Positions 11,174 through 31,140 of a DNA stretch of 31,161 nt are shown here, piece by piece. Made by a program: the position numbers and the translations under genes. Under the pieces are notes generated by a model. The model made no database searches. It was not told where the DNA came from and worked only from the letters and a program-made list of their open reading frames with translations. Position 1 is the first letter of the stretch; each line of letters starts with the position of its first letter. The stretch is from a virus. Where the stretch lies: the IMG/VR virus record IMGVR_UViG_3300017971_000622; one strand, written 5' to 3'.

Positions 11174-11208
11174 CTATTGCAACAGCGTCCTCGAAATCCG
11201 GAAAAATC
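11174..11208 (-). promoter_or_regulatory. recurrent bipartite motif P1 (candidate element-specific promoter)
   Basis: Minus strand: GATTTTTCCGGATTTC-GAGGACGCTGTT-GCAATAG-TGT. Confidence 0.55.
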
Positions 11209-11286
11209 TACACAAAAAGAAAAGGCCGGACACCTTTCGATATCCGACCTTTCCAACCACGCCAATGACGCAGTCCAATATGTAAT

Positions 11287-11363
11287 TGGTAGCGGGGGCC
11301 AGATTTGAACTGGCGGCCTACAGGTTATGAGCCTGTCGAGCTACCGGACTGCTCCACCCCGCA
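11287..11363 (-). tRNA. tRNA-Met (anticodon CAU), initiator-like
   Basis: 77 nt with encoded CCA: TGCGGGGTGGAGCAGTCCGGTAGCTCGACAGGCTCATAACCTGTAGGCCGCCAGTTCAAATCTGGCCCCCGCTACCA. It folds as a cloverleaf and is close to E. coli tRNA-fMet as I recall it. Position 1:72 is a U:U mismatch, but only 2 G-C pairs lie next to the anticodon loop. Confidence 0.9.
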
Positions 11364-11665
11364 ATCAAATTACATAAAAAAGTAGATACCAATGGTCGCT
11401 AAAAGGGTAATGTCGCACTTGCGACTAACGCTACCGTCTTACCAGTAACGGCCCGATGATTCTCTCGGCGCAACAATATCCGCTTAACCCTGCGGCGGGT
11501 CGCCACGTTCACCCTGTGGCAGGTCGCTACCACCCTTAAAGAGTGGCGGCAGTGTGGCCAGCTTCAACGTCCAAACAGATGGACTCCACTGACCGTTTGC
11601 TTCATTATCTATGAAGTAACCCTTCGCTGAAGTGTATCGCACTTCCATATTTTTCAAAGAACTGC
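11364..11665 (-). ncRNA. ~300-nt noncoding transcript upstream of and co-oriented with tRNA-Met
   Basis: No ORF. It starts just downstream of a TATAAT promoter. Several hairpins are present, for example GTCGC-AAGT-GCGAC and CCAC-TCTTTAAGG-GTGG. Confidence 0.4.
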
Positions 11666-11671
11666 CGGTAT

Positions 11672-11701
11672 ATTATACCGGGTTGTAGAGAATGTCCACA
11701 A
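11672..11701 (-). promoter_or_regulatory. sigma70-like promoter (TTGTGG-N18-TATAAT)
   Basis: The -10 TATAAT is the reverse complement of 11672..11677, inside the palindrome CCGGTATAATATACCGG. The -35-like TTGTGG is at 11696..11701. Confidence 0.5.
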
Positions 11702-11716
11702 CTTTTTCAGGAAATT

Positions 11717-28956: not shown

Positions 28957-28964
28957 GGTATACT

Positions 28965-29002
28965 ATTATACACCCACACGAAGAGTCAACAGAAAAAATT
29001 TC
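28965..29002 (-). promoter_or_regulatory. conserved promoter block (same class as 17025..17062)
   Basis: Minus strand: GAAATTTTTTCTGTTGACTCTTCGTGTGGGTGTATAAT. A TTGAC box lies only 13 nt from the -10. Confidence 0.5.
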
Positions 29003-29690
29003 AAGAAACCGTATAGCCTGCGGCCCTGATACAGTCAATCACCGCATCCATATTCATCACCACTCGCTGATGGGTAAGGGTAATTTTGCCATAAAGAACA
29101 CGAATAGTCTTTTTACCATGTTTTTCAAAGGCGTCTCCCTCGGGAACAGCCCACAGTCCTTCCCCATCACGTACGTCCATCTGCACTGGTGTCTTGGTCA
29201 CATATTTGTAACTTGACTCAATAAGCAAACAGAGGGCGTTCAATTGATTCGTGCCCATTTCCTCCAAGGGTAAAAAACTTCCATCTGGAAGTGCGTAAGG
29301 CAAGCCATACCGATTAATATCAGCGGCATTTGAACAACGAGCAAAAAGACGCTTGTGCTTCAGATTGGAACGAAAGCGACTCTGCATTCTGGTCTTAAAT
29401 GCCTTGCCCATTTTTTTCTGAGAAAGGGCATAAATGAATGGAACAAGGTGCAACTTTGATGCCAAATCGCCGGGCTTAAATTTGTAATCCACAACAAGCC
29501 ACAGCGCCCTAACCCAGACATCATTTTTCTCATAGAGGTGTTCCTGCAACTGCTCCAATTCAGTCCGTGTCAGTTCTTTGCTTGCCTCGTTAAGAATTTT
29601 GACCAATTCTTTTATCGCCTCTGCCACCCCGTTGTTGGCTTTCCGTATTACCGTCTCCATGCGCCGTATGTAGCTCCTATGTGTTTTCAT
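29001..29690 (-). CDS. hypothetical protein (AT-rich island)
   Basis: ORF track. GAAGGAGA RBS upstream. Composition is visibly more AT-rich than the rest of the window. Confidence 0.7.
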   Translation of the reverse strand: MKTHRSYIRRMETVIRKANNGVAEAIKELVKILNEASKELTRTELEQLQEHLYEKNDVWVRALWLVVDYKFKPGDLASKLHLVPFIYALSQKKMGKAFKTRMQSRFRSNLKHKRLFARCSNAADINRYGLPYALPDGSFLPLEEMGTNQLNALCLLIESSYKYVTKTPVQMDVRDGEGLWAVPEGDAFEKHGKKTIRVLYGKITLTHQRVVMNMDAVIDCIRAAGYTVS

Positions 29691-29712
29691 ACCATCTCCT
29701 TCTGTGTTTGAC

Positions 29713-31068
29713 CTACGCTACTATCTGTAGATTTGTTTTTCTTACTTCCTCCAACGCCAACTCCCATGGCAATTTTGTGTTGGATATTTTGAGATATGCA
29801 TCTCTCATCTCTATTTCATTAGATGTAAACCTCTTGCTTTTCTTCATTATGACAGTGTCGGCAGATTTGTTCCTATAGCTCGTGGAAGAACCCTTGCCAA
29901 GTCCCCTCTTCGCAAAAACGATGGCATAAAATGGAACTGCGCTTCGGCCCTTCGAGAGTGCCGCATAATTAAAAAAACCATGCAATACAGCTCTGGCAAA
30001 ACGACGTGCCTCAAAAGCCACAAGCTTGCCCTTGTCGTATTTTGTTGAGATGGACTCTCCTTCTTCTGTCATATACAGAGCAAGATATGCGACTTCACCA
30101 AGGGCCTTCATGCCATTGCTGGAGTGAAGTATGCTATAGAGAGAATCCTCCGCCTGAATAATAGCTTCTCTGATTTTCTCTGCTTTGTCTGATGAGAGTT
30201 CTGACAATACTTTCATGCCTTCCTCTAAGAGGTTGACAATTTCGTTGTGATAAACACTCAAAAATGAAATGCCATTGTCGAACATTTTTTCGAAATAGAG
30301 TAGCTTGTCGTATTTGGATTTTACGGGGCCAAGGTTAGTCAGCTTGCTCAAACAATCCTTAACAGAGCCAAGAGTTGGAGCACTTGCTTCATCACCCTGT
30401 TCGACTCTTGGCTCATAAGGAAGGGATACGGTCTTGTAACCAATTAAGTCGGGGTCAGCCAGCCGCACAGCTATTAAAGAATCCTTACAAGTGCTCACAC
30501 ACTGTCTCTTCTGGTCACTGTCCTTCTGCACGTTTGCGATAGTATCTAACACATTACGAGAAGACTTTTCCAATAAGTCTTCCTTGCGTGAATCATTCAT
30601 GACAGAAGCAGACCTACGAGCATTTTCAATGGAGTCTTCTCGATTCATTTCTATTGGAATTTTCGAATCAAAGCCATAAAGCAATCCCACGAAAGCGCAT
30701 CTGTGCCTGCCTGCCAATAAGTGATTACTGAGAAGGTTGGGTATCTCAACAATCTGCACAGCATTAATAATGCCTCCCCTGCTTATGGCGTCTACGGCTA
30801 AGTCGAGACACTTGGAAATTTTAAGCCTTGCATTTGGTGGATGACACTCATTAAGCTCATCACGATGATTCTTCCTCAGATACCTGCTCGCACTCTCCAG
30901 TCCCTTGGCAGGAATGATACAGTCGTAATCGTCAATAAAAGACAATTCGCTTAACTTCTCTCGTTTTCTGTGAGGATGTCGTGTCAGGAGTGACTCCAGA
31001 GGGGGTAGCTTCTTTAGATGAGTCTTCTTTAACACCATTCTGATGAATTCTTCATTGCCTTTACTCAT
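29713..31068 (-). CDS. ParB/sulfiredoxin-fold-like (DGQHR/DndB/IbrB-like?) domain protein
   Basis: ...IVEIPNLLSNHLLAGRHRCAFVGL... resembles the ParB-N (D/x)G(x)HR motif. AAAGGAGA RBS upstream. The assignment is weak. Confidence 0.4.
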   Translation of the reverse strand: MSKGNEEFIRMVLKKTHLKKLPPLESLLTRHPHRKREKLSELSFIDDYDCIIPAKGLESASRYLRKNHRDELNECHPPNARLKISKCLDLAVDAISRGGIINAVQIVEIPNLLSNHLLAGRHRCAFVGLLYGFDSKIPIEMNREDSIENARRSASVMNDSRKEDLLEKSSRNVLDTIANVQKDSDQKRQCVSTCKDSLIAVRLADPDLIGYKTVSLPYEPRVEQGDEASAPTLGSVKDCLSKLTNLGPVKSKYDKLLYFEKMFDNGISFLSVYHNEIVNLLEEGMKVLSELSSDKAEKIREAIIQAEDSLYSILHSSNGMKALGEVAYLALYMTEEGESISTKYDKGKLVAFEARRFARAVLHGFFNYAALSKGRSAVPFYAIVFAKRGLGKGSSTSYRNKSADTVIMKKSKRFTSNEIEMRDAYLKISNTKLPWELALEEVRKTNLQIVA

Positions 31069-31104
31069 ATTAATATCTCCTTTTTAGATTAAGTGGTTCC
31101 TTCA

Positions 31105-31140
31105 CTATTGCGAACCACTAGCCAAAATCCGGAAGCAATT
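31105..31140 (-). promoter_or_regulatory. recurrent bipartite motif P6 (most divergent copy)
   Basis: Minus strand: AATTGCTTCCGGATTTT-GGCTAGTGGTTC-GCAATAG-TGA. Confidence 0.45.

Follow-up and report, generated by a model that had tools for sequence, protein, structure and literature searches.

A putative phage-specific promoter class with a bipartite, near-invariant motif in an uncultivated lineage of very large bacteriophages

The 31,161-base stretch of viral DNA in the IMG/VR record IMGVR_UViG_3300017971_000622, analyzed at its full length and called the window below, carries six copies of a bipartite motif, TTCCGGATTT followed by 13 spacer nucleotides and GCAATAG, which probably serve as promoters; the single class they make up would be specific to very large bacteriophages of an uncultivated lineage. 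We refer to this class as class 1 and to its six window copies as P1 to P6. All six are exact and lie on the minus strand, which is the coding strand and holds every convincing gene and RNA of the window. On the gene map, they all fall outside protein-coding open reading frames (ORFs), in the small non-coding fraction. By comparison, 100 dinucleotide-preserving shuffles of the window yielded no copy at all, and a tolerance of three mismatches added a single window match, at 4745, which is intragenic. An initial annotation made from the letters alone had already described six copies with this spacing and had taken them for promoters of one class. Exact matching supports the first claim, and the copies' shared orientation, intergenic location, retention across related contigs and placement directly upstream of genes, tRNAs and non-coding RNAs support the second.

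The motif in the window and in related contigs

The six copies, with the start sites that we predict for them and the units that they head, are as follows.

P1: 11174..11203, minus strand; class-1 promoter, exact match, predicted +1 at about 11167; 15 nucleotides past a terminator-like hairpin (11254-11219); heads a 330-nucleotide leader or RNA followed by ORF 10813-10406 and by the TROVE gene (10141-8366).
P2: 16355..16384, minus strand; class-1 promoter, exact match, predicted +1 at about 16348; 1 nucleotide past the stop codon of ORF 16772-16386; heads about 770 nucleotides without a convincing ORF, then a transfer-messenger RNA (tmRNA; 15578-15201) and more RNA.
P3: 18253..18282, minus strand; class-1 promoter, exact match, predicted +1 at about 18246, where AGGAGG begins; 4 nucleotides past the stop codon of ORF 20197-18287; drives a 381-amino-acid gene (18235-17090).
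P4: 25387..25416, minus strand; class-1 promoter, exact match, predicted +1 at about 25380; conserved leader GTGAGAGCAAATGAGACAA at 25380-25362, with the same promoter and leader in the related locus L037; heads a DUF8317-like and a PAPS-reductase-like gene.
P5: 26442..26471, minus strand; class-1 promoter, exact match, predicted +1 at about 26435; leader GTGAGAGAGAATGAGACAA at 26435-26417; 25 nucleotides past a terminator-like hairpin (26522-26497); heads a PAPS_reduct gene ending at 25422.
P6: 31105..31134, minus strand; class-1 promoter, exact match, predicted +1 at about 31098; drives a 451-amino-acid gene (31068-29713); an 8-bp inverted repeat, AGTGGTTC (31119-31112) and GAACCACT (31099-31092), brackets its GCAATAG.

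The positions agree with those first given for the copies, although the end coordinates of the initial annotation carry 4-6 surplus upstream bases. The observation that each copy sits just past a stop codon or a terminator also stands: P2, P3 and P4 begin 1-5 nucleotides past a stop codon, terminator-like hairpins precede P1 and P5, and upstream of P6 a hairpin with a T-run, together with a TGTATGAT box, becomes visible beyond the window edge in locus L003 only, the surroundings of P6 on that side having been read from L003 and L004. The sequence GTGAGAG..AATGAGACAA is indeed common to P4 and P5. The range of 20-330 nucleotides proposed for the distance to the next ribosome-binding site (RBS) needs correction at its lower bound, as the AGGAGG of P3 begins 7 nucleotides past the final G of the motif.

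A scan of metagenomes with the exact motif retrieved 118 loci. About 30 of them, mainly from the Joint Genome Institute (JGI) samples Ga0180433-438 and the whole-genome shotgun project SDBT01, have a window-like context: an A/T-rich stretch just upstream, T before GCAATAG, tGt after it, and then an RBS with ATG, a tRNA or a structured RNA. The remaining loci are lone matches inside unrelated genes, as expected by chance. Family statistics were drawn from 217 kb, comprising the window and the family loci (cited by L numbers where they need to be told apart), with 51 unique sites at two or fewer mismatches. Within every locus the orientation of these sites is uniform, and at none of them is the spacing 12 or 14 instead of 13. 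Counted somewhat more broadly, about 55 sites include none that is antisense to others of its locus, and nearly all are intergenic. In five family loci the motif strand is also that of the tRNA genes. The half-motifs reproduce this asymmetry: on the coding strand 55 of 67 CCGGATT and 50 of 56 GCAATAG strings lie inside a full motif, as against 0 of 16 and 0 of 5, respectively, on the antisense strand.

The variants are few, namely the last T of the 10-mer replaced by C, A or G, its first T by A or C, and GCAATAG by GCAATGG. This leaves 14 invariant positions, TCCGGATT and GCAAT-G, where the invariance of one site per family locus follows by construction from its retrieval with the exact pattern, and the unbiased sites are the extra ones in each family locus plus the window's own six. 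The extended consensus reads A.ATTT-TTCCGGATTT-C.AG...TCT..T-GCAATAG-tGt. Recent duplication was rejected as the source of the repeats, whose spacers and flanks diverge around a fixed core. Outside the family, 185,579 reference genomes contained 110 loci with the exact motif, each a lone match without family context, which we take as chance. There was no exact match in IMG/VR, and a full-text literature search for the 10-mer returned unrelated primer sequences only. In practical terms, TCCGGATT-N15-GCAAT[A/G]G provides a searchable one-strand signature, which can serve to recruit and orient fragmented contigs of the family and to delimit their operons and non-coding RNAs.

Predicted transcription start and a second promoter class

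Several features put limits on where transcription from class 1 can begin. At seven sites, an ATG without an RBS lies exactly 6-7 nucleotides past the final G and opens an ORF of 88-465 codons, and there is no such ATG at 0-5 or 8 nucleotides; the status of one of these sites, which has two mismatches, is doubtful. Three of the seven are orthologues of RtcB with a conserved N-terminus (L016 at about 1089, and L025 and L122, both on the minus strand as stored), and in-frame stops in L016 and L025 exclude starts farther upstream. Because these start codons lie 6-7 nucleotides past the motif and have no RBS, the RtcB mRNAs of the family are probably leaderless. The nearest RBSs begin at the seventh nucleotide (GGAGG in L050, L051, L089 and L121; AGGAGG at P3), as does the conserved leader GTGAGAGCAA..GACAA at eight sites, among them P4, P5 and sites in L015, L037 and L055. 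Further, the first tRNA of an 18-tRNA array in L026 begins 14 nucleotides past the motif. As the RBS-less ATGs, nearest RBSs, leader and tRNA array agree, we predict +1 at about the seventh nucleotide past GCAATAG. This would place GCAATAG at -13 to -7 and TCCGGA at -35 to -30. The gap between TCCGGA and CAATAG, fixed at 17 bp by the 13-nucleotide spacing, fits the 17 ± 1 bp of the sigma-70 family.

The same DNA has a second, TATAAT-type promoter class (class 2), as the initial annotation had recognized for the NUDIX and NAMPT genes, the operon with the MVP-like gene and tRNA-Met. In the window and the family loci, gTGTATAAT has 23 coding-strand copies and one antisense copy. The window boxes are listed here.

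28965..28972, minus strand: class-2 box TGTATAAT, upstream of the NUDIX and NAMPT genes.
17025..17032, minus strand: class-2 box TGTATAAT, heading a 317-nucleotide non-coding gap (17089-16773), 253 nucleotides upstream of ORF 16772-16386.
14553..14560, minus strand: class-2 box TGTATAAT, past a terminator (14613-14585) and upstream of an operon with a 373-amino-acid gene and the MVP-like gene.
11672..11679, minus strand: class-2-like box GGTATAAT, upstream of tRNA-Met (11363-11287).

The two classes also occur in tandem, upstream of P6 (in L003), in L073 and in L119. On the minus strand, about 250 nucleotides between the second of these boxes and ORF 16772-16386 (16773-17024) form a GC-rich, apparently structured non-coding stretch, for which Rfam gave no match at the gathering threshold.

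Class 2 calibrates the geometry: several of its RBS-less ATGs lie 5 nucleotides past TATAAT, a distance that marks the geometry as of the bacterial -10 type. Because an exact copy of this geometry would move the class-1 hexamer by one base, the register of class 1 is uncertain by 1 nucleotide, and TG-n-AATAGt is an equally possible reading of the -10 element. The hexamer AATAGt in this register matches TATAAT at four of six positions with TG upstream, and C at -13, A at -12 and G at -8 are invariant. The register first proposed took TAGnnT as the -10 and GGATTT as the -35. The strings themselves are as described, with the closing TAG of the motif opening a TAGnnT hexamer in five of six copies (the exception, P6, has TAGTGA) and GGATTT 17 nucleotides upstream of that TAG. 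This register is nonetheless disfavored: it leaves just 3 nucleotides between the hexamer and +1 and needs a final T found in 58% of 38 sites, in contrast to the essentially fixed GCAATAG. Together, the two promoter classes, predicted starts and probable leaderless transcripts offer a transcription map to work from in this uncultivated lineage of giant phages.

Possible promoter hairpins and the phage lineage

In about a dozen of the sites, the first 10-15 predicted transcribed bases, often with the RBS among them, are complementary to the spacer, such that an inverted repeat brackets GCAATAG. These sites include P6 in the window (31092-31119), L051 (12 bp), L121 (7 bp), L008, L009, L015, L050 and L089. 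The spacer-leader duplexes of the sites themselves are stronger than mismatched pairings (permutation p = 0.0006), and an anti-Shine-Dalgarno string occurs in the spacers of 15 of 28 genes with an RBS as against 4 of 23 others (p = 0.01). The predicted exposure of the RBS is 0.27 for the native sequences, compared with 0.33 when other sites' upstream regions are substituted (p = 0.23), 0.34 when the spacer is shuffled (p = 0.11) and 0.40 when the whole upstream region is shuffled (p = 0.02). We therefore put forward tentatively, as a hypothesis because predicted exposure departs modestly from the controls, that a hairpin might hide the RBS on transcripts reading through from upstream. In phage T4 the late genes e (lysozyme), soc and 49 have a promoter inside a hairpin, and their RBS is freed only on late transcripts. 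The class-1 hairpin would be similar in forming only in read-through transcripts from upstream, but differs in involving a subset of the sites and in its modest effect on exposure. Should this be borne out, the hairpins would suggest, indirectly, that class 1 comes into play after transcription that reads through from upstream. That the copies would constitute one temporal class, as the initial annotation had it, has indirect support only, from the tandem promoters of the two classes and from the hairpins that take in the RBS at some sites. As a separate observation, L015 (minus strand as stored) has perfect 15-bp hairpins at the predicted transcript start of both of its class-1 promoters (oriented positions 4055 and 10153), and these show compensatory changes, ATAGTTACTATCACC/GGTGATAGTAACTAT in one versus GTAGTTACTACCGCC/GGCGGTAGTAACTAC in the other.

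Among the window's products are a Ro/TROVE protein, an MVP-like protein, NUDIX and NAMPT proteins, two PAPS-reductase-like proteins, a tmRNA and tRNA-Met, and many of its ORFs lack a family match. The related loci encode RtcB, T4 gp30.3-like and endonuclease VII-like proteins, HNH endonucleases, an NAD-dependent ligase and an LpxR-family protein. They further bear tRNA arrays of 18 genes (L026, 8945-12696), 21 genes including tRNA-SeC (L073, 206-9309), 16 genes (L119, 283-11409) and 12 genes (L085, 6257-12106). Because of these shared phage-type genes and contigs with 12-21 tRNA genes each, we conclude that the DNA comes from a lineage of large phages that are rich in tRNA genes and have a bacterial host. 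An archaeal reading with TATA and BRE elements was rejected, as the tmRNA, the match to the LpxR outer-membrane family and the starts 5 nucleotides past TATAAT indicate a bacterial host. The lineage carries an unusual set of RNA-repair and translation components, comprising Ro/TROVE, RtcB, tmRNA and large tRNA arrays.

Neither GenBank phages nor IMG/VR yielded a close relative. Megablast against GenBank phages recovered a 42-nucleotide tRNA-Met stretch only; a 636-amino-acid protein had no phage match; the TROVE protein had distant phage matches only, at 24-29% identity; and two window proteins had no relatives in IMG/VR. Short contigs of JGI samples 3300017963 and 3300028840, and of two ENA assemblies (ERZ27256798 and ERZ27256783), contain stretches identical to the window. 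The contigs with window proteins stop at the window's ends or inside a paralogue array, and only L003 extends farther, by 2 kb upstream of P6. There, at 135-1946 of L003, just upstream of P6 and beyond the window, are two DNA methyltransferase genes (N6_N4_Mtase and MT-A70); a tie between them and the palindrome TCCGGA in the -35 element would be pure speculation.

The paralogue array at 400-7910 (minus strand) consists of about 20 tandem small ORFs whose products start with M(N/D)NQ(K/R)(I/V)A(R/Q)ELV(A/R)(V/M)A(R/K)ELTA. This 8-kb region has no class-1 motif, and metagenome contigs break inside it. A related N-terminus, MN(R/E)ExKIAxR(V/I), is found on several larger ORFs (17090-18235, 20158-20607, 20565-21545, 21542-21910 and 21868-22884). 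The unit downstream of P2 (16348-14585, minus strand) is mostly RNA and ends with an ACP-like ORF (14849-14616) and a terminator. At about 15195-15045 it contains a tRNA-like element whose ends resemble D and T arms and which has an insertion of about 70 nucleotides; ARAGORN did not call this element, and Rfam gave no match in this unit apart from the tmRNA. The 330-nucleotide P1 leader of the TROVE operon (11167-10814, minus strand) has a box, GTTCTTTGACAA, about 10 nucleotides past the predicted start. This box is also present after class-1 promoters in L071, L102 and L042 and recurs in the RNA operon at about 16250 and 16105. It could be part of a Ro-associated RNA or a processing signal; Rfam gave no Y-RNA match.

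The presumed factor reading class 1 and its known counterparts

Within the wider reading of a promoter class, we favor on balance a dedicated, non-housekeeping sigma factor, probably encoded by the phage, as the specificity factor of class 1. A bacterial multisubunit RNA polymerase would then read the sites as sigma-70-family-type promoters, with an A/T-rich stretch just upstream, TTCCGGATTT over the -35 region (TCCGGA at about -35 to -30), the partly conserved 13-nucleotide spacer, GCAATAG at about -13 to -7, and a start about 7 nucleotides past the last G. The bacterial polymerase is suggested by the geometry, the A/T-rich upstream stretch and the co-existing TATAAT class, and the dedicated sigma by the 14 invariant positions, the rigid spacing and the fact that both halves are unlike the TATAAT-type class. 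TCCGGA and CAATAG each match the corresponding housekeeping hexamer at two of six positions, in line with the early remark that the motif is unlike TTGACA and TATAAT, and a scan with the housekeeping consensus missed all six sites. The earlier idea of an element-encoded or redirected polymerase is of the same inferential kind. We would go further only with some diffidence, and hold it possible rather than probable that class 1 is served by an undescribed sigma or polymerase-specificity subunit of tRNA-rich giant phages, reading a host-orthogonal and unusually information-rich promoter of about 30 bits and 14 fixed positions, with some genes silenced by hairpins in read-through transcripts and expressed from class 1 alone.

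Several points weigh against the favored reading of class 1 as promoters with a dedicated sigma. A hunt for the factor, a check that the initial annotation had named, covered part of the genome, with Pfam and PHROGs run on 30 window ORFs and Pfam on 150 related-locus ORFs of 105 or more amino acids (about 186 kb). It found no sigma, MotA/AsiA-like or RNA polymerase match, though very divergent factors would be missed by it. phmmer with an approximate fragment of Escherichia coli RpoD likewise gave no sigma match. To these may be added the by-construction invariance of one site per family locus and the derivation of +1 from sequence alone. Finally, the alternative register keeps A at -11 and often T at -7, which makes recognition by the host primary sigma possible.

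This last point leads to a rival that we nevertheless consider unlikely, in which the host primary sigma acts with a phage activator or through sigma appropriation; here TGcAATAGt would be an extended -10, and the activator would bind TTCCGGATTT in place of a -35. The middle promoters of T4 are of this kind, with a MotA box at -30 and a sigma-70 -10 read through sigma appropriation by AsiA and MotA. Class 1 is like them in that a phage-specific box replaces the -35 and one register keeps the A at -11. In favor of this rival, the class-2-calibrated hexamer AATAGt combines this A with a T at -7 (66% of sites) and an upstream TG at -15/-14; TCCGGA, for its part, is palindromic over 6 bp, as would suit a DNA-binding protein. 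However, class 1 has no TGCTT box, and its -10 is a fixed GCAATAG rather than TAnnnT. Indeed, GCAAT(A/G)G is essentially invariant at 51 sites, where a host sigma would lead one to expect drift within TAnnnT, as may be compared with the phage's own TATAAT class. Moreover, none of the ORFs scanned (in the family loci, those of at least 105 amino acids) had a Pfam match to MotA, MotCF or AsiA.

The class-1 consensus matches no described class, and sigma-H promoters are the nearest. The consensus of Firmicutes sigma-H (Spo0H) is RNAGGAWWW-N11-12-RNNGAATWW. This resemblance raises the prospect, improbable in our judgement, that the phage exploits a host alternative sigma, such as a sigma-H-like stationary-phase or sporulation factor, and the want of a phage sigma gene among the ORFs scanned speaks in its favor. 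So does the Clostridioides difficile SigH promoter CD0142, GAGGATTAT-N-TAGAAT (PMC7438776, Table 3), which parallels the architecture of class 1: in both, A/T bases come after GGA in the -35 and the -10 contains xAAT, with 20 nucleotides from GGA to xAAT (PMC7438776). Yet the positions that define sigma-H promoters differ in class 1 and are fixed in their different state: CAAT stands for GAAT at all 51 sites, TCC rather than purine-N-A precedes GGA, and AG rather than A/T follows AAT. For the first two of these differences, we conclude that class-1 sites are not sigma-H promoters. It is also far less degenerate, and such near-invariance is typical of phage-specific systems. The 110 lone matches in reference genomes, none of them in family context, argue in the same direction, with the qualification that an exact 17-base pattern is a stringent test for a regulon.

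Promoters of T7-type single-subunit polymerases are contiguous elements of about 19-23 bp, spanning about -17 to +6. Class 1 is similarly near-invariant, information-rich and element-specific, with at least 14 fixed positions, and a further point for readings of another sort is the inverted repeat that brackets GCAATAG at a subset of sites. Even so, a single-subunit or non-canonical multisubunit phage polymerase, or a non-promoter role as operator, parS-like site, recombination site or RNA-level element, is highly improbable, as class 1 is bipartite, with conservation running from -36 to -7 across a 13-nucleotide variable spacer and ending ahead of a largely unconserved start region, no RNA polymerase match of any strength was found among the 150 related-locus ORFs, the complete motif lacks the palindromic form of parS sites and typical operators, and a non-promoter role leaves unexplained the fixed 6-7 nucleotides to RBS-less starts, the strict co-orientation and the placement in front of tRNA and RNA operons. 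Other sigma types were rejected against the class-1 consensus. Sigma-54 promoters (TGGCAC-N5-TTGC) have GG at -24 and GC at -12, 12 bp apart, whereas the GG and GC of the motif are 19 bp apart; the consensus contains neither the GGAAC-like -35 nor the CGT-containing -10 of extracytoplasmic function (ECF) sigmas; and sigma-28 and the sporulation sigmas E, F, G and K were likewise rejected on their consensus sequences.

A dedicated phage sigma, as favored here, has its counterpart in Bacillus phage SPO1, whose sigmas gp28 (AGGAGA-N17-TTTnTTT) and gp33/34 work with the host core polymerase on middle and late promoters. Like these, class 1 is bipartite, has -35 and -10 elements about 17 bp apart, a consensus unlike that of the host and highly conserved copies, and shares its genome with host-type promoters. 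It differs in that its sequence is unrelated and in being known here from the motif alone. Phage-specific promoter classes are expected biology, as large phages commonly carry their own, and the cognate factor of class 1, if found, would make with it a compact and highly specific promoter/sigma pair.

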